From the NCBI RefSeq assembly GCF_050920415.1, contig NZ_CP169309.1: a stretch of DNA of 64,000 nucleotides. One strand, given 5' to 3'. The stretch is from Escherichia coli (GTDB lineage Bacteria; Pseudomonadota; Gammaproteobacteria; Enterobacterales; Enterobacteriaceae). Within the stretch, counting starts at the first letter, position 1, and every line of letters starts with the position of its first letter. The notes below the pieces were generated by a model that worked only from the letters and a program-made list of their open reading frames with translations, was not told where the DNA came from and ran no database searches. Of the stretch, positions 217-45,046 are shown piece by piece. A program made the translations under genes and the position numbers.

Positions 217-693
217 ATGCTTAACCAGCTCGATAACCTGACGGAGCGCGTCAGAGGAAGTAACAAACTGGTTGATCGCTGGCTACATGTACGTAAGCAT
301 CTGCTCGTGGCTTACTACAATCTGGTTGGCATTAAGCCTGGCAAAGAATCGTACATGAGGCTAAACGAAAAAGCCCTTGATGATTTTTGTCAGAGCCTGG
401 TCGATTACTTGTCTGCCGGACATTTCAGTATTTATGAGCGCATTCTTCATAAACTGGAAGGCAATGGGCAACTCGCACGCGCCGCGAAGATTTGGCCACA
501 ACTCGAAGCCAATACCCAACAGATTATGGATTACTACGATTCCAGCCTGGAAACCGCTATCGATCATGATAATTACCTTGAGTTTCAACAGGTTTTATCT
601 GACATCGGCGAGGCCCTGGAAGCGCGCTTTGTGCTGGAAGATAAGCTGATTCTGCTGGTGCTTGACGCCGCCCGCGTCAAACATCCTGCTTGA
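217..693 (+). CDS. rsd: Regulator of sigma D (anti-sigma-70 factor) Rsd, 158 aa
   Basis: ORF track 217..693; full-length recognisable Rsd sequence. Confidence 0.93.
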   Translation: MLNQLDNLTERVRGSNKLVDRWLHVRKHLLVAYYNLVGIKPGKESYMRLNEKALDDFCQSLVDYLSAGHFSIYERILHKLEGNGQLARAAKIWPQLEANTQQIMDYYDSSLETAIDHDNYLEFQQVLSDIGEALEARFVLEDKLILLVLDAARVKHPA

Positions 694-35791: not shown

Positions 35792-36068
35792 ACTGGATTG
35801 CTCCAGTGTTGTGAATGAACCGTAACGCAATAAAACATATTTACTGCAATTCTTTGGCCGGTTCTTTTACGAACATCGGAAACCTGCCGCTTAAACGGTG
35901 AGTATTGGCGATAAAAATCCAATAAAACGTTCAAGGCAAAAGTAAGAAACAGACAAAGCAAAGGCCGCTCACGATATAGCCAGATAAATGACGGGGATCA
36001 ATTGGCTTACCCGCGATAAAATGTTACCATTCTGTTGCTTTTATGTATAAGAACAGGTAAGCCCTACC

Positions 36069-37469
36069 ATGCCACATTCCTACGATTACGATGCCATAGT
36101 AATAGGTTCCGGCCCCGGCGGCGAAGGCGCTGCAATGGGCCTGGTTAAGCAAGGTGCGCGCGTCGCAGTTATCGAGCGTTATCAAAATGTTGGCGGCGGT
36201 TGCACCCACTGGGGCACCATCCCGTCGAAAGCTCTCCGTCACGCCGTCAGCCGCATTATAGAATTCAATCAAAACCCACTTTACAGCGACCATTCGCGAC
36301 TGCTCCGCTCTTCTTTTGCCGATATCCTTAACCATGCCGATAACGTGATTAATCAACAAACGCGCATGCGTCAGGGATTTTACGAACGTAATCACTGTGA
36401 AATATTGCAGGGGAACGCTCGCTTTGTTGACGAGCATACGTTGGCGCTGGATTGCCCGGACGGCAGCGTCGAAACACTAACCGCTGAAAAATTTGTTATT
36501 GCCTGTGGTTCTCGCCCTTATCATCCAACAGATGTTGATTTCACCCATCCACGCATTTACGACAGCGACTCAATTCTTAGCATGCACCACGAACCGCGCC
36601 ATGTACTTATCTATGGTGCTGGAGTGATCGGCTGTGAATATGCGTCGATCTTCCGCGGTATGGATGTAAAAGTGGATCTGATCAACACCCGCGATCGTCT
36701 GCTGGCGTTTCTCGATCAGGAGATGTCAGACTCTCTCTCCTATCACTTCTGGAACAGTGGCGTAGTGATTCGTCACAACGAAGAGTACGAAAAGATCGAA
36801 GGCTGTGACGACGGTGTGATTATGCATCTGAAGTCGGGCAAAAAGCTGAAAGCCGACTGTCTTCTCTATGCCAACGGTCGTACCGGTAATACCGATTCGC
36901 TGGCGTTACAGAACATTGGGCTGGAAACTGACAGTCGTGGACAGCTGAAGGTCAACAGCATGTATCAGACCGCACAGCCGCACGTTTACGCGGTGGGCGA
37001 CGTGATTGGTTATCCGAGCCTGGCGTCGGCAGCCTATGACCAGGGGCGCATTGCCGCGCAGGCGCTGGTGAAAGGTGAAGCCACCGCACATCTGATTGAA
37101 GATATCCCTACCGGCATTTACACCATTCCGGAAATCAGCTCTGTAGGCAAAACCGAACAGCAGCTGACCGCGATGAAAGTGCCGTATGAAGTGGGCCGCG
37201 CCCAGTTTAAACATCTGGCACGTGCACAAATCGTTGGCATGAACGTGGGTACGCTGAAAATTTTGTTCCATCGGGAAACAAAAGAGATTCTGGGCATTCA
37301 CTGCTTTGGCGAACGCGCTGCCGAGATTATCCATATCGGGCAGGCGATAATGGAACAGAAAGGTGGCGGCAACACTATTGAGTACTTCGTCAACACCACC
37401 TTTAACTACCCGACGATGGCGGAAGCCTATCGGGTAGCCGCGTTAAACGGTTTAAACCGCCTGTTTTAA
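36069..37469 (+). CDS. sthA: Soluble pyridine nucleotide transhydrogenase SthA (UdhA), 466 aa
   Basis: ORF track; FAD-binding GSGPGG motif. Confidence 0.95.
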
Positions 37470-38369
37470 CACTTTATCGAAATGGCCATCCATTCTTGCG
37501 CGGATGGCCTCTGCCAGCTGCTCATAGCGGCTGCGCAGCGGTGAGCCCGGACGATAAACCAGGCCAATAGTGCGGCGTGGTTCCGGCTTAATACACGGCA
37601 AATAAACAACCCCATCGCGTTTGCGCTCCGGCGGCACAGCCAGTGCAGGCAGTAAAGTGATCCCGCTACCTGCCGCCACCATGTTGCGCAGAGTTTCCAG
37701 GCTGGTCGCGCGGAAGTGTGTATCTTCATCCGCCCCGGCTTCAAAGCAGAAACCCATTGCCTGATCGCGCAAACAGTGACCATCTTCCAGCATCAGCAGT
37801 TTTTCCCCTGCCAGATCGGCCATCGGTACGCATTCGCGGTTCGCCCACGGGTGATCTTCATAGATAGCCAGCAACATTGGCTCATCAAACAACGGCACTT
37901 CAATGAATGCTTCGCTCTCTTTCACCAGCGCGAGGATCACGCAATCGAGTTTGCCGCTGTCCAGTTGCGCCAGTAACTGGTGGGTCTGTGCTTCATGCAG
38001 ATACATTTCCAGCTTTGGAAAGGTCTGGTGCAGCATCGGAATAATATGCGGTAACAGGTAAGGCCCAACCGTGGGAATCAAACCAATATGCAGCGGCCCG
38101 GACATTGTCTCGCCCTGCTGGCTTGCCATCTCTTTAAGGACTTTCACCTCACGCAGCACGGTACGCGCCTGATCCACCAGCAGCATTCCCGCCTGGGTGA
38201 ACAACACTTTACGGCTGGTCCGCTCCAGCAACATCACGCCCAGCTCATCTTCCAGCTTACGAATTTGCCCGCTAAGCGTCGGCTGGCTAACGTGGCAGGA
38301 ATCTGCCGCACGCCGAAAATGACGGTGTTCAGCCAATGCCACCAGGTACTCAAGATCACGAATATTCAT
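37452..38369 (-). CDS. oxyR: LysR-family hydrogen peroxide sensor/regulator OxyR, 305 aa
   Basis: ORF track 37452..38399; canonical start [18 protein letters not shown] at 38369; redox cysteines present (HCLRDQ and CIKPEP contexts); 18-nt convergent overlap with sthA. Confidence 0.95.
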
Positions 38370-38464
38370 TATCCATCCTCCATCGCCACGATAGTTCATG
38401 GCGATAGGTAGAATAGCAATGAACGATTATCCCTATCAAGCATTCTGACTGATAATTGCTCACA
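38370..38464. promoter_or_regulatory. Divergent oxyR/oxyS promoter region with OxyR operator
   Basis: 95 nt between the oxyR start and the oxyS 5' end; repeated ATAG-type elements; assignment from the known oxyR-oxyS architecture. Confidence 0.6.
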
Positions 38465-38578
38465 GAAACGGAGCGGCACCTCTTTTAACCCTTGAAGTCA
38501 CTGCCCGTTTCGAGAGTTTCTCAACTCGAATAACTAAAGCCAACGTGAACTTTTGCGGATCTCCAGGATCCGCTTTTT
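38465..38578 (+). ncRNA. oxyS: OxyS small regulatory RNA
   Basis: Sequence GAAACGGAGCGGCACCTCTTTTAACCCTTGAAGTCACTGCCCGTTTCGAGAGTTTCTCAACTCGAATAACTAAAGCCAACGTGAACTTTTGCGGATCTCCAGGATCCGCTTTTTTTT recognised, including the terminal hairpin and U-tract. Confidence 0.88.
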
Positions 38579-38620
38579 TTTATTCTACAGGCCCACAGCA
38601 AGAGAGCCTGATAGTAACAG

Positions 38621-39904
38621 TTACTCAATCCGATCTTTGACAATAAAGAAGTAACACAGCGCCCCGGTGAACGTCACACAGGCCGCGATAACCAGCGCCA
38701 GATTAAACGAGTGCGTGGTATCCACTACCCAACCGGTTACGATCGGAGCAAAGGAAGCAAAAACAAAACTGCCAAAGTTTTGAATCCCGGCGATGGAAGC
38801 CACTTTTGTTTCTGACACCATCACCTGCACCAGTCCCCATGCAGATGTTCCCGCGAAATGCACGCAGAACAGCGCCATTGAGATAAACGCTACAGCCTGG
38901 GCTGGCGAGGAGGATTGCACGACCAGCAACGTGCCTAATGCCGACATCATCAAACCGCAAACAATAGCCGTTTTACGCGTCTTCGCCAGGTCGTAGCCTT
39001 TTTTCGCCAGCCGATCGACAACAATACCGTTAACCCACATCCCGACCGCCGCCGCGAGGAAAGGAATCGCCGCCACCCAACCGGTTTTCGCCAGACTGAA
39101 GCCTTGCTCGGCTTGTAAATAACCGGGTAACCACGCGATGTAGAGCCAACCGGTATAATTGACGCCAGAGAAACCTAAAATCATCCCCCAGGTTGTCCGA
39201 TGCTTAAACAGCGCCAGCCACTCGCTAAATTGTAATTGTGGACGCGGTTTAACCGGCGCGGAGAGATAGGTCCGTTCTTCGTCGGTCAGGACAAACTGCG
39301 CCCGGTTGCGATACCACGCGTACCAACAGATCCCAACCAGAATCCCCGCCACGCCGATGATGACGAACATTGCCCGCCAGCCCCATGCCAGCTGCATCAA
39401 TACAAGAGCAGGAGGCGCAATAGCCTGACCGATAACGGTAGATGAGTTAAAAATCCCCAGCGCCGTGCCGCGTTCTTTTTGCGCATACCAGTCGGTGATC
39501 GACTTTACTCCCGCAGGCATAAATGGCGCTTCGCCAATACCCAGACCGATACGCATTAAAATAAAGTGGCTAAAAGAATTAACCATTCCTGTTAATGCCT
39601 GCATTAATGACCAGAATATTAAGCCTGCGCCTAAAACTATTCGTGGGCCAAAGCGGTCTAGCAAAATACCGGAAGGGAGTTGTGAAAAACCATAAGACAG
39701 AGAAAATGCAGAAAGCAAAACGCCAAATTCTGTCGCCGATAATCCTAACTCGCCACGAATCGCTTCGCCTGCCACGCTCAATGACGAACGGTCGAGGAAA
39801 TTAACGATCCCCGCCATAAATAATAAAACCAGCGTTACTGTCTGAATACGACGAATCCGTTGCGGTTTATTACCCGCAACACTGGTTGACACATCAACGT
39901 CCAT
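38621..39904 (-). CDS. MFS transporter, anion:cation symporter (ACS) family; putative sugar-acid (hexonate/hexuronate-type) permease, 427 aa
   Basis: ORF track; 12-TM hydrophobicity pattern; N-terminal NFLDR motif and overall similarity to DgoT/ExuT/GudP-type permeases; not at this locus in K-12 as I recall it. Confidence 0.8.
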   Translation of the reverse strand: MDVDVSTSVAGNKPQRIRRIQTVTLVLLFMAGIVNFLDRSSLSVAGEAIRGELGLSATEFGVLLSAFSLSYGFSQLPSGILLDRFGPRIVLGAGLIFWSLMQALTGMVNSFSHFILMRIGLGIGEAPFMPAGVKSITDWYAQKERGTALGIFNSSTVIGQAIAPPALVLMQLAWGWRAMFVIIGVAGILVGICWYAWYRNRAQFVLTDEERTYLSAPVKPRPQLQFSEWLALFKHRTTWGMILGFSGVNYTGWLYIAWLPGYLQAEQGFSLAKTGWVAAIPFLAAAVGMWVNGIVVDRLAKKGYDLAKTRKTAIVCGLMMSALGTLLVVQSSSPAQAVAFISMALFCVHFAGTSAWGLVQVMVSETKVASIAGIQNFGSFVFASFAPIVTGWVVDTTHSFNLALVIAACVTFTGALCYFFIVKDRIE

Positions 39905-39970
39905 TTTTAGCTCCTTGAGCGGAATTAATCGATTTGCTGACTATTCAGAAAATAATTAAGCGAACCGTTA

Positions 39971-41185
39971 TTACCAGTTCCACAATGTGCCATCTTCCAG
40001 TCGTGCGACGGGGAGATACGCCGGGTCATACGGATATTTCGCCGCCAGTTTCTCATCGAAAGAAATACCCAGCCCCGGTTCATCGCCTGGGTGCATATAA
40101 CCTTCATCGAAGCGCCAGCTGTGCGGGAAGACTTCAAGCATTTGTTCGGAATAGCCCATGTACTCCTGAACGCCAAAGTTTGGCACCCAGAGGTCAAAAT
40201 GCAGCGCCGCCGCATGACAAACAGGCGATAAATCTGAAGGGCCATGCGAACCGGTACGTACCTGATAAAGCGATGCAAAATCGGCAATCCGTCGCATCCC
40301 GGTAATGCCGCCTGCATGGGTAATCGTCGTGCGAATATAGTCAATCAGCTGCTCTTCGATTAACTGCTTGCAGTCCCAGATACTGTTAAACACTTCACCG
40401 ACCGCAATCGGCGTCACAGTATGCTGGCGAATCAGACGAAAACATTCCTGGTTCTCGGCAGGCGTCGGATCTTCCATCCAGAACAGGCGGTAATCCTCAA
40501 TGCTCTTCCCAAAGCGCGCCGCTTCGATAGGAGTCAGGCGATGGTGCATGTCATGCAACAGATGTTCGTTAAAACCGAACTTATTACGCACCGCTTCAAA
40601 TAACTTCGGTGTAAAATCGAGATACTTTTCTGAAGACCACAACTGCTCTTCCGGCCACAGGCCTTTGGTTGCCGGTTCATACGCCAGTCCTTTGCCCTTC
40701 GCCAGGCCATAAGTGGTTTGCATACCCGGTACACCGCACTGCACACGAATCGCCTTAAAGCCCATCAGCTGGTGCTTTGCATAGTCTTCAAGGACTTCAT
40801 CAATCGTGCGCCCGGTGGTGTGGCAATAAACCATCACGCCTTCACGAGAAGCCCCACCAAGCAGTTGATACAATGGCATATTTGCCGCTTTGGCTTTGAT
40901 ATCCCACAACGCCATATCAATGGCAGAAATGGCCGACATCGTGACGGGGCCACGTCGCCAGTAAGCACCTTTATAAAAGAATTGCCAGATATCTTCGATA
41001 CGGCTGGCATCGCGGCCAATTAATTGTGGACAAAGATGATCTTTCAGATAAGAAGCGACCGACAATTCGCGACCATTTAATGTGGCATCTCCCAATCCAC
41101 AAAGTCCGCTTGCAGTGGTTATTTTAAGCGTAACGAAATTACGTCTTGGGCAAGTAACAAAAACATCTGCAGCAATAATTTTCAT
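39971..41185 (-). CDS. Enolase-superfamily dehydratase, D-mannonate dehydratase (ManD)/RspA subgroup, 404 aa
   Basis: ORF track 39971..41245; start moved to ATG at 41185-41183 ([13 protein letters not shown]), preceded by RBS CAGGAG; hallmark RspA/ManD blocks [54 protein letters not shown]. Confidence 0.85.
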
Positions 41186-41670
41186 TATTGCAATCTCCTG
41201 TGTTGTAAATAGATGCTTCAAACTTAATTTTACGCCTACTACCATACAAGAGAGAAAGAGCGATTATTCAACCGTGATCACATTAAAAATAAAAATTTCC
41301 GCCGAGGAGAAAAAACACCCTCAAAAACCACCTGAATAATTAACCATTATCGTTAAAACAACACGTTAAATAATCACATAACAAACTCCATTAATCATTA
41401 AATATGAGCGCAGCAATAGAAATGAATTATATTCAATTAATTAAAATATGTATTGATTGATGTATTGAAAATATGATTTTCATGGGGAGAGTGAAGGTAA
41501 AGAAGACGCAAGAATAAAAAGGAATATGACAAATAATAGTTCTGGTTGGGCGTTAAATTTAAGGTCACCAGAATGCTGACAAATTTCTGCCTGAGGCAGT
41601 CCGCCTACGTAGTGTCGCTACTTTATAGGCGTGGTAAGCTCCCCATTTTCAGGGGAGCAATATAAACCAA
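41186..41670 (-). promoter_or_regulatory. AT-rich upstream region of the accessory operon (putative promoter)
   Basis: About 485 nt ORF-free, locally very AT-rich (e.g. 41340-41560), between the argH stop and the dehydratase start; no promoter elements assigned. Confidence 0.4.
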
Positions 41671-43044
41671 TTACCCCAACCGCGCCTGCGCAAAAGCAAT
41701 CGCCTGCGCCACCTGCTGCGGGGAGACGCCGCCTTTTGCCGCACGCTTGTCGAGGCACGATTGCAGCGACAGAATCGGATAGACATCTTCGCCAATCACC
41801 TCGCTGAATTTCTGCAACTCACTGAGCGGCAGTTCTTCCAGCGGTTTGCCCTGACGAATGGCTTCCACCACCGCTTCACCAACAATATGGTGCGCCTCGC
41901 GGAACGGCACACCTTTCGCCACCAGGTAATCCGCCAGTTCAGTGGCGTTCGCATACCCCTGCTGCGCCGCTTCCTGGCAACGTGGGCGTTTCACCTGAAT
42001 CCCGTCCAGCACCAGCGCCGCCATATGCAGGCAGTCCAGCCAGGTATCGAGCGCATCGAACAGACCTTCTTTGTCTTCCTGCATATCTTTGTTATAGGCC
42101 AACGGCAGACCTTTCAGCGTCATCATCATGCCGGTCAACGCGCCCTGAACACGACCGCATTTACCGCGAATCAACTCCAGCGCATCCGGGTTTTTCTTCT
42201 GCGGCATTAATGATGAACCGGAAGTAACACGATCAGAAAGCTCCACAAAACCCGCTTCGCCGGTGTTAAAGAAAATCAGATCTTCGGCAAAACGCGACAA
42301 ATGCACCATACCGATAGCGGCGGCAGATAGCAGTTCCAGCACGTGGTCGCGGTCAGAAACGCTGTCGAGACTGTTACGGGTCGCCGAGGCAAAGCCCAGC
42401 CAGCCTGCTAACTGTTCACGGTCGATTTCATAGGCCGTTCCCGCCAGGGCGCCACAGCCTAGCGGGCTGACATCCAGACGCTTAAGCGCATCCTGCAAAC
42501 GGCTTTCATCACGCGCCAGCATCTCAACATAGGCCAGGCACCAGTGCGCAAACGTCACCGGCTGGGCGCGTTGCAGGTGAGTGTAACCAGGCATTACCGC
42601 GTCCTGATTATTCTGCGCGGTTTCCACCAGCGCCGATTGTAACTGTCGGTTAGCCGTCAGCAACTCGCTAACGGTATCCTTGCACCACAGTTTCAGGTCA
42701 GTCGCTACCTGATCATTACGGCTACGCCCGGTATGCAGTTTTTTGCCTAACTGGCCCACTTTGTCGATCAGTTTGCCTTCCACCCAGCTATGGATATCTT
42801 CGGCGTCGCTTTCAAGAATTTGTTGTGGCCTGGCGCGAACATCTTCCAGCAGCACATTGAGCGCCTCTTCCAGTTGCACCTGTTCTTCTGCGGTTAACAC
42901 GCCTACCGTTACCAGCGCTTTGGACCAGGCCACAGAGCCAACAATATCCTGCTCCGCCAGACGGTAATCAAAGCGCAGTGAGTCGTTGAATTGTTTAAAC
43001 CGTTGATCTGCTGCCTGGGTAAAACGCCCGCCCCAAAGTGCCAT
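41671..43044 (-). CDS. argH: Argininosuccinate lyase ArgH, 457 aa
   Basis: ORF track; recognisable sequence. Confidence 0.96.
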
Positions 43045-43104
43045 AACTCTGTTTCCTTATTTTGAAATTCAATGCCAGAAAGCTACGTCTCTGGCCAACA
43101 AAAC

Positions 43105-43881
43105 TTAAGCTAAAATCCGCGTACCCATCGGCATACCGTTAAACAGTGCCGGAAGCTGTTCCGCATGACGCCAGGAGGCAATATCTACCGGGCGACCCAG
43201 CGTGCGCGCAGCGTCCAGCGCCGCGTTCACTTTCACTATCATGCCGTCAGTAATAATGCCCTGCTCAATCAGTTGTTCTGCTTTCGCTGCGGTCATTTCG
43301 GCAATACGTTGCCCTTTGCCGTCGAGAATACCGCTGACATCAGAGAGCAAAATCAGATCCGCGCCCAGCGTTGCCGCCAGCGCCGTCGCCGCCTGGTCAG
43401 CATTGACGTTCATCAGTTGCCCTTCGTCCGTTACGCCAATGGAGCTGACCACTGGTAGATAACCGTTTTCCAGCAACGTGTTGATAAGCTTAGGCGAACC
43501 TGGCTGCGCCAGTCCAACATGGCCTAACTCTTCATCGAGCTGGGTCACTTTTACGCTGTCGCCGTCACCGAGAAACAAACCTACGGCTGCAATCTGATGT
43601 TTCTTCGCCCATGCCAGCAGGGTTTTATTTGCCGTTCCCGCCAGCGCTCCGGTGATAATGTCTATCTGATCCGCAGGCGTCACCCGCAGGCCGTTTTTCT
43701 TTTTCACCGGCAGATTCAGTCCTTTCATCAGCTCATCCACCACGCAGCCGCCGCCGTGGACAATCACCAGCGGACGCTGATGTGACTCGCGATAATTCAC
43801 CAGGGCGCTAAACAGACGTTCCAGCGCCTCTTCACTATCCAGCAGTACGCCGCCCAGTTTGATAATTAATGGATTCATCAT
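43105..43881 (-). CDS. argB: Acetylglutamate kinase ArgB, 258 aa
   Basis: ORF track 43105..43914; start set to [11 protein letters not shown]. Confidence 0.93.
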
Positions 43882-43888
43882 TGCACCC

Positions 43889-44893
43889 CTAAATAAGAGA
43901 CTGCGTTTCCGCATAGCCGAAACGAATATTGGCGCACTGTACCGCTTGTGCTGCCGCGCCTTTCAATAAGTTGTCTTCGGTCGCCACAATAATCAGATGT
44001 TCCCCCTGAACGGCAAAACCGATATCGCAGAACGGCAGCCCGACGACATTTTTCAGCGCCGGAACGCCTTTGTCATACAACCGTACCAGCGGTTTATGGG
44101 CATACGCCTGCTGTAACGCTTGCGCGACTTGCGCCTGGTTCACGCCAGGCTTCAGGCGGCAGGTAATGGTTTCGAGAATGCCGCGCGGGAAATTGCCCAG
44201 ATGCGGGGTAAAAATAACGTCAGCACCGAGATGCGTGGCGATCTCCGGCTGGTGGCGATGGGTAAAGACACCATACGGTTGCAGGCTAACTTCACAAAAA
44301 CTATTTGAAATCGCTGCCTTACGTCCTGCTCCGCTCACACCACTGGTGGCGTTGATAACCGGCCACTGATTGAGGTCAAGAAGATCGGCATCAATCAACG
44401 GTTTCAGCGCCAATTGCGCCGCCGTCGGATAACAGCCAGGCACCGCAATTAAGTTCGCTTCTTTTAATTTATGACCGCACCACTCCGCCAGACCGTAAGC
44501 TGCCTGTTCCAACAGTTCCGGGTATTGATGGCTAAAGCCGTAATATTTTTCATAGAAGGTGGCGTCGTTAACACGAAACGCGCCGGAAAGGTCGAACACC
44601 ACACAGCCCGCTTCAAGAAATTGTGGCGCTAAATCGTGACTAACTTCATGGGCAGTAGCAAGAAACACCACGTCCACCCCTGGGCTAAACTCACTGATAT
44701 CCGACATCGGCTGCAACGGCAGATCAACGATGCCTTTTAGCTGCGGATGCAAATCGGAGATTAACTTTCCCGCATCATTGCTTTGCGCTGAAACAGTCAA
44801 AGCGGTTATGTTCATATGCGGATGGCGATTTACATAGGTCACTAGCTCTGCGCCAGCGTAACCGCTGGCACCCACAATCAGCGTATTCAACAT
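43889..44893 (-). CDS. argC: N-acetyl-gamma-glutamyl-phosphate reductase ArgC, 334 aa
   Basis: ORF track; recognisable sequence. Confidence 0.95.
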
Positions 44894-45046
44894 CGGGGCT
44901 ATTCACCTTCTTATGTCTGGTTGCCTGGTTAAACGTAAAACATTCACCTTACGGCTGGTGGGTTTTATTACGCTCAACGTTAGTGTATTTTTATTCACAA
45001 ATACTGCATGAATATTGATACTATCATGACCAGAGGTGTGTCAACA
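44894..45046. promoter_or_regulatory. Divergent argE / argCBH control region with ArgR operators (ARG boxes)
   Basis: Palindromic AT-rich ARG-box-like repeats TTATTCACAAATACTGCATGAATATTGATA at about 44985-45030 between divergent argC and argE. Confidence 0.65.

Follow-up and report, generated by a model that had tools for sequence, protein, structure and literature searches.

A manD-transporter pair between argH and oxyS

We analyzed a 64,000-nucleotide (nt) stretch of the Escherichia coli chromosome (contig NZ_CP169309.1 of RefSeq assembly GCF_050920415.1; called here the window), in which an open reading frame (ORF) at positions 38621 to 39904 of the minus strand encodes a major facilitator superfamily (MFS) transporter. 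The ORF begins with ATG, has zero internal stop codons, and is intact in the window. An earlier note on this DNA, made from the letters alone, had described the product as a protein of the ACS (anion:cation symporter) family with 12 transmembrane helices (TMs), encoded 66 nt downstream of a dehydratase gene on the same strand. Both descriptions were borne out: the matches to MFS_1, TIGR00893, and DgoT agree with an AlphaFold2 (AF2) model, and the spacer between the two genes is exactly 66 nt, the stop codon of the dehydratase gene, manD, ending at 39971. Along the window, the gene order is sthA (+), oxyR (−), oxyS (+), the MFS gene (−), and manD (−), followed by a 485-nt noncoding stretch with 34% GC, argH-argB-argC (−), and argE (+). 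The chromosomal context is that of E. coli; among 5,426 complete E. coli genomes, 5,425 matched the region from 37400 to 45000 at ≥95% identity, and it was at least 80% covered in 1,716. The coordinates of all features are given in Table 1.

The MFS gene and manD are the only genes aboard an accessory island that stands in place of the 54-nt argH-oxyS spacer of strain K-12. In the alignment, homology to K-12 ends directly after the argH stop codon and restarts at the A-run of the oxyS terminator. The oxyS gene, which is convergent with the MFS gene and whose 3′ end lies 46 nt from the MFS stop codon, is a marker of the island boundary and is outside the transporter system. The island, counted at a coverage of at least 80%, was found in 1,860 of the 5,426 complete genomes (34%) and was always chromosomal. 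K-12 is without it, and CFT073 and ATCC 25922 carry intact copies. The island alleles fall into two groups, with ≥99% and ~97% identity. We found no literature specific to the island or to its transporter.

TABLE 1 Features of the manD-MFS island and its borders (window positions) and modeled helices of the MFS protein (residues)
Feature	Position	Strand	Evidence or remark
MFS symporter CDS (coding sequence), ACS family (SLC17-like)	38621..39904	−	427 amino acids (aa); ORF and translation, family profiles, DgoT PDB match, AF2/Foldseek, 56% identity to LgoT
Shine-Dalgarno sequence AGGAG	39911..39915	−	6 nt before the MFS ATG; retained by the CFT073 allele and by cryptic clades of Escherichia
manD-MFS spacer, 66 nt	39905..39970	−	No promoter or terminator signal
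manD, enolase-superfamily D-mannonate dehydratase, RspA paralogue	39971..41185	−	404 aa; NF043051, RefSeq annotation
rspA-type promoter copy	41221..41282	−	Alignment of 10 promoters including K-12 PrspA
Promoter element TGTGATCAC	41274-41282	−	Conserved element containing the invariant TGTGA
Promoter element CTTGTATGGTAGTAG	41236-41250	−	Right RspR half-box plus a −35-like TTGTAT
Possible −10, TAAGTT	41221-41226	−	Putative
AT-rich noncoding island leader, 34% GC	41186..41670	−	Between argH stop and manD start
Whole accessory island, ~3.09 kb	38582..41670		Boundary alignment versus K-12
OxyS small RNA gene	38465..38574	+	Rfam RF00035, 139.5 bits
AF2 helices, N-terminal half	15-53, 57-85, 87-105, 111-139, 142-197 (two TMs)		MFS protein residues
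AF2 cytoplasmic helices	208-234		MFS protein residues
AF2 helices, C-terminal half	236-265, 271-301, 306-329, 334-362, 365-397, 401-420		MFS protein residues

Family, fold, and predicted mechanism

The Pfam model MFS_1 (PF07690) matched the protein with 191.4 bits (gathering score, 33.4). The top NCBIfam model was that of the ACS family, TIGR00893 (275.3 bits), and the next was that of the OPA family, TIGR00881 (169 bits). By sequence, the best solved structure was DgoT (6E9N; 197 bits over residues 13 to 424), followed by VGLUT and sialin. The AF2 model (predicted local distance difference test score, 89.7; predicted template modeling score, 0.89) has 12 TMs and two short cytoplasmic helices, and in a fold search with Foldseek its best matches were again DgoT (6E9N and 6E9O; TM scores of 0.80 to 0.88) and then sialin and VGLUT; all of the top matches were MFS transporters.

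In DgoT, D46 and E133 are proton-coupling residues, and R47 and Y79 are carboxylate ligands (PMC6532931). In our alignment, DgoT residues D46, R47, Y79, R126, E133, W373, and N393 are conserved as D38, R39, Y71, R118, E125, W356, and N376. Three of these, the TM1 pair D38 and R39 and the TM4 residue E125, occur in the window protein as well as in each mapped orthologue of its clade; among 21 aligned sequences, none departs from R39 or E125, and D38 is nearly invariant, ExuT having T at this position. Judged from its sequence, the prediction that the MFS protein is an H+-coupled carboxylate (sugar-acid) symporter is well supported. The likeness to DgoT extends to gene order, since in dgoD-dgoT the transporter is also directly downstream of an enolase-superfamily dehydratase. 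The two systems differ, however, in that identity is only ~31%, the island protein has T, F, and T where DgoT has the hydroxyl-binding residues Q164, Q264, and S370, and has F for Y44, and in that the island has no kinase, aldolase, or regulator gene.

Placement among ACS transporters

We compared the window protein and its orthologues with the six ACS proteins of K-12 by pairwise identity and by a neighbor-joining (NJ) tree. Identity to the window protein was highest for LgoT (56%), with GarP (32%), DgoT (31%), GudP (29%), ExuT (23%), and RhmT (21%) far behind. The window protein and its orthologues were monophyletic, and this clade grouped with LgoT in 200 of 200 NJ bootstraps, so the expectation that it would fall on the sugar-acid side of the ACS family was supported. 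Placement with tartrate- or phthalate-type ACS transporters was rejected on the basis of the sister relationship to LgoT, the TtuB and Pht1 sequences being absent from the tree. LgoT is a strictly L-galactonate-specific H+ symporter, as determined with proteoliposomes and by growth complementation, and E. coli is said to have six ACS transporters (bioRxiv 10.64898/2026.05.20.726482). That count is centered on K-12; the island gene would be a seventh E. coli ACS paralogue, missing in K-12 and carried by about one-third of the sequenced strains, including uropathogen CFT073 and reference strain ATCC 25922.

The MFS protein and LgoT align over their full lengths, share the proton-coupling and carboxylate-binding residues, and have 9 of 12 mapped pocket positions in common, including F245 (LgoT F266) and T353 (LgoT T374). 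The remaining three positions differ: F36, M129, and T156 of the window protein are Y55, N148, and S175 in LgoT. The three window residues are invariant in orthologues from 10 genera with 69 to 92% identity. Also in contrast to LgoT, the MFS clade is linked to ManD or UxuA and rsp genes instead of to lgoD and lgoR. The two genes differ in distribution as well; lgoT is present in 4,517 of the 5,426 genomes (83%), which, given the 1,860 genomes with the island, means that at least 951 genomes must carry both. Such coexistence fits the expectation for a paralogue whose substrate is related yet distinct.

These comparisons bear on the idea that the MFS protein has the same function as LgoT and is a second, redundant transporter of L-galactonate. 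The identity, the sister position, and the shared F245 and T353 speak for it, as does one Cedecea record that was automatically named "L-galactonate transporter." We nevertheless consider it very unlikely, given the coexistence with lgoT, the three invariant differences at pocket positions where ACS transporters tune stereoselectivity, and the gene neighborhoods: no LgoD-type neighbor was seen in the 21 loci described below, where the MFS gene was never beside lgoD or lgoR. From the relationship to LgoT and stereochemical reasoning, the substrate is expected to be a hexonate with an L-like configuration at C2.

Gene neighborhoods in other genera

The neighborhoods of the MFS orthologues were scanned in one genome per species, which gave 21 loci in which ORFs were mapped and neighbors were annotated. 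Orthologues with 82 to 92% identity lie inside the rsp locus in at least nine other enterobacterial genera, among them Enterobacter, Pluralibacter, Klebsiella, Raoultella, Citrobacter, Siccibacter, Atlantibacter, and Lelliottia. The order there is speG-ynfB-ynfA, then MFS-RspA-RspB-YdfJ-YdfI, and then an RspR-type GntR regulator. The partner genes encode an RspA that is 94 to 95% identical to K-12 RspA, an RspB-type Zn oxidoreductase (NF007489, ~645 bits), one or more YdfJ-type MHS transporters, and a member of the YdfI fructuronate reductase family (671 bits); some rsp-type loci additionally hold uxaC and a GPH transporter. The MFS gene precedes manD in seven loci, and the order is reversed in Escherichia, Siccibacter, Lelliottia, and Enterobacter sp. 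kpr-6. In Rouxiella badensis, the gene next after a 69 to 71% orthologue encodes UxuA (TIGR00695, 644 bits), the canonical D-mannonate dehydratase, and a gene for a GntR regulator is divergent from the pair. The presence of two unrelated mannonate dehydratases, ManD and UxuA, with the same transporter argues that mannonate dehydration is the step that is fed. In Shimwellia, the MFS gene has no dehydratase nearby, and the neighbors of distant homologues (40 to 42% identity) in Allorhizobium and Bryobacteraceae were uninformative.

The MFS gene had earlier been called an orphan, which is true within E. coli only; elsewhere, its orthologues lie inside the RspR-regulated rspA-rspB-ydfJ-ydfI cluster, a setting that points to the L-gulonate/D-mannonate system as the pathway. 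The accompanying suggestion that the transporter supplies the dehydratase with substrate stands as far as the link between the genes goes, for that link holds across genera (with ManD, and with UxuA in Rouxiella), but the transported compound may instead be L-gulonate, which is two enzymatic steps upstream.

Compared with the rsp locus of E. coli, the island has a ManD with 91% identity to RspA and a promoter homologous to PrspA, and the MFS orthologues of other genera occupy the first or second position in the rsp cluster. The differences are that the K-12 locus has no ACS transporter, only the MHS-type YdfJ, and that the island has no rspB, ydfI, or rspR and its RspR box is half degenerate. 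Overall, manD-MFS in the island resembles a segment of an rsp-type cluster that has moved to another site.

Two of the scanned loci deserve mention in their own right. In Enterobacter sp. kpr-6, ManD is encoded twice within 7 kb; one copy is accompanied by uxaC, a GPH transporter, and a YdfI-like gene and the other by the MFS gene. A record titled "Chryseobacterium sp." carries a typical enterobacterial speG-ynfC-rsp locus and is probably mislabeled or contaminated.

Transcription signals

In the 66-nt spacer between manD and the MFS gene, we found no sigma-70-like promoter match and no real terminator; there is one weak terminator-like stem (39962 to 39980), which overlaps the manD stop codon, and the RNA fold of the spacer is no better than those of shuffled sequences (z = −0.75). 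The check for a separate promoter or terminator that the earlier note had proposed thus turned up neither. The spacer is conserved within Escherichia, and the equivalent spacer is 19 nt in two Lelliottia species and 123 to 158 nt in some other loci. These data make it highly improbable that the MFS gene is transcribed independently of manD from a promoter of its own in or near the spacer. Although 66 nt suffices for a minimal promoter, and the reversed gene order in several genera and the longer spacers fit such an arrangement, the spacer without signals, the 19-nt spacer in Lelliottia, and a conserved PrspA core that is always upstream of the first gene of the pair all argue against it. Instead, given also the shared strand and the good Shine-Dalgarno sequence before the MFS ATG, manD and the MFS gene are probably co-transcribed.

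Alignment of the 10 promoters showed that TGTGA and CTTGTATGGTAG are invariant at fixed spacing, in K-12 PrspA as well, and that the PrspA-like core precedes whichever gene of the pair comes first in all 10 aligned loci. The −10 and −35 assignments in the window promoter are putative, based on this alignment. The element TGTGATCAC was rejected as a full CRP site, as in most loci its match to the CRP consensus is confined to the left half.

In K-12, the RspR repressor gives a footprint of 31 bp centered on ATACnnGTAT (ATACTTGTAT) and represses rspA, the transcription start site of which has been mapped (PMC8249747). The RspR-box region of the island is TCTCTTGTAT, in which the left half has been lost (TCTC for ATAC); the right half does not vary, nor does the GGTAGTAG that flanks it. 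Because the left halves are also degenerate in MFS-first operons that are beside rspR (ATTC, CTTC, and GTTC), control of the island by RspR in trans is plausible.

Between the MFS stop codon and the convergent oxyS gene, no U-tract terminator was found; the hairpin shared with oxyS, read along the MFS strand, is followed by AAAAGUU (window positions 38465 to 38620). Consequently, the manD-MFS transcript may read antisense through oxyS toward the oxyR promoter. At the other end of the island (41600 to 41680), the K-12 intrinsic argH terminator is absent, and two stable hairpins without U-tracts follow the argH stop codon (z = −3.3); some read-through from argH into the island leader could occur.

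Candidate substrates

Our best explanation for these observations is that the MFS protein is an H+-coupled hexonate symporter for D-mannonate and/or L-gulonate that is co-transcribed with manD and feeds the 2-keto-3-deoxy-D-gluconate (KDG) pathway. We give this a probability of roughly 0.6; the identity of the substrate, the co-transcription, and regulation by RspR or CRP are parts that we infer. The MFS gene would be the second gene of a two-gene manD-MFS unit, driven by the duplicated rspA-type promoter ~40 to 100 nt upstream of manD. ManD or UxuA would dehydrate imported D-mannonate to KDG; for imported L-gulonate, prior conversion by RspB and YdfI/UxuB, the genes for which lie outside the island, would be needed.

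The stereochemistry of the candidates fits the relationship to LgoT. L-Gulonate is the C5 epimer of D-mannonate and the C3 epimer of L-galactonate, and all three have the same configuration at C2, which would make D-mannonate or L-gulonate a natural substrate for an LgoT-like pocket. The minimal modules (manD-MFS in E. coli and MFS-uxuA in Rouxiella) favor D-mannonate because nothing else is needed to reach KDG. On the other hand, an LgoT-like Thr is retained at the position proposed to contact the C5 hydroxyl, and this, together with the large clusters containing RspB and YdfI, favors L-gulonate. The transporter may take both. In Haemophilus influenzae, the route from L-gulonate via D-fructuronate and D-mannonate to KDG has been established experimentally; there, L-gulonate and D-mannonate are both ligands of the binding protein of a TRAP transporter, and each of them induces the genes (PMC5788505). 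The H. influenzae pathway (GulD-UxuB-UxuA) differs from the system considered here in that its transporter is a TRAP system.

Several observations weigh against this explanation. The TIGR00893 score of 275.3 bits falls short of the curated cutoff of 395; that model appears to be tuned to DgoT/GudP-like members. Apart from the single Cedecea record, database names for the protein are the generic "MFS transporter." In the larger clusters, one or two additional transporters (YdfJ-type MHS and GPH) are encoded that could carry L-gulonate instead. The left half of the RspR box is missing from the island promoter, as described above. Inactivated or shortened alleles also exist: in the nearest database genome (NZ_CP169399.1), a CGA-to-TGA change creates R88* in the MFS gene, which is annotated as a pseudogene, and strain IR53017 has a 276-nt in-frame deletion that leaves 335 aa. 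Finally, Wichelecki et al. reportedly concluded in 2014 that RspA-type ManDs are low-efficiency enzymes without an identified physiological role, in which case D-mannonate may not be the true pathway intermediate.

The last point leads to a rather unlikely alternative, that the MFS protein imports a different sugar acid that is the true substrate of the low-efficiency RspA-type dehydratases, the link to mannonate being only approximate. Candidates would include L-idonate, D-gluconate, D-altronate, and modified or deoxy hexonates. The physiological role of the low-efficiency ManDs is said never to have been found, and the three clade-specific pocket positions and the Shimwellia gene without a dehydratase nearby also speak for such a substrate. 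However, the partner in Rouxiella is a bona fide UxuA-family mannonate dehydratase, the RspB and YdfI families to which the neighbors belong fit the L-gulonate/D-mannonate route, and the closest relative, LgoT, takes an unmodified hexonate.

A broader and more tentative proposal can be made, which we hold to be possible though not probable: the manD-MFS island would be a self-contained, RspR-controlled module for salvage of D-mannonate or L-gulonate, L-gulonate being a product of the host glucuronate pathway and the permease being the missing entry point. Were this true, the entry permease would explain why the L-gulonate pathway looks cryptic in strains or under conditions in which the permease is absent or silent, and knowledge of the substrate would assign a physiological role to the low-efficiency RspA-type dehydratases. 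RspA-type dehydratases have been called "starvation-sensing" proteins since 1994, and the transporter offers an experimental handle on the role of these "mannonate dehydratases" and of the rsp cluster. As a close but differently tuned relative of LgoT, it could also help to map how the ACS/SLC17 pocket reads sugar-acid stereochemistry. At the same time, the protein is a new, uncharacterized member of a well-known family in which another hexonate permease is the expected finding, and in that respect the advance is incremental.

Integrity and selection

The window copy was ruled out as a pseudogene, as the R88* stop codon of the nearest genome is not present in it. Comparison of the window and CFT073 alleles gave 31 synonymous versus 2 nonsynonymous codon differences for the MFS gene and 20 versus 5 for manD. 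The 90% cluster of the intact 427-aa MFS form holds 5,979 member sequences; a few E. coli variants have 388 aa or 399 aa. The codon differences point to strong purifying selection on the MFS gene between divergent alleles, with function retained.

We therefore regard as unlikely the possibility that the E. coli island is a cryptic or decaying relic, in which the transporter gene is intact here but unexpressed or unused. It is true that two-thirds of the strains are without the island, that nonsense and deletion alleles exist, that no regulator is encoded in the island, and that the L-gulonate pathway of E. coli has reportedly been described (Wichelecki and coworkers, 2014) as cryptic. Furthermore, Citrobacter sp. 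R56 has at the same argH-oxyR site an rspA-type promoter, a ManD remnant of ~70 codons in which the N terminus is fused to the C terminus, and an intact MFS gene (92% identity). Against decay stand the excess of synonymous differences, the size of the 427-aa cluster, and a promoter core and Shine-Dalgarno sequence that are kept in both allele groups and in other Escherichia species. In Citrobacter sp. R56, it is the transporter that has been retained and the dehydratase that has been lost.

The dehydratase

The island ManD scored 726 bits against the ManD equivalog model NF043051 (cutoff, 550) and is 91.3% identical to K-12 RspA. We know of no characterization of the island ManD itself. The structure deposited as PDB 4IL2 ("RspA, CFT073") was ruled out as the island enzyme: it is 99.5% identical to K-12 RspA versus 90.8% to the island ManD, which identifies it as the rsp-locus RspA. 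The dehydratase ORF can be read back to 41245, an overshoot of 20 codons; the gene actually starts with the ATG at 41185, which is annotated, supported by the family models, and preceded by AGGAG. The 20-codon extension (41186 to 41245) overlaps the conserved promoter core.

Variability of the argH-oxyS site and a nearby site

The argH-oxyS site is also occupied in the Escherichia cryptic clades and in E. whittamii. E. coli WP2-W18-ESBL-10 has ~9 kb more between argH and manD, encoding two epimerases (an araD-like enzyme and an L-ribulose-5-P 3-epimerase), an FGGY kinase, a sugar ABC transporter, and a DeoR regulator. With such extra genes in some strains, the argH-oxyS gap is a variable integration hotspot. 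A second variable site lies nearby, between sthA and fabR (35831 to 36068), where two additional genes, for an M20 aminoacylase and a citrate/H+-symporter-like MFS protein, are found in CFT073 and in the cryptic Escherichia clades but not in the window.

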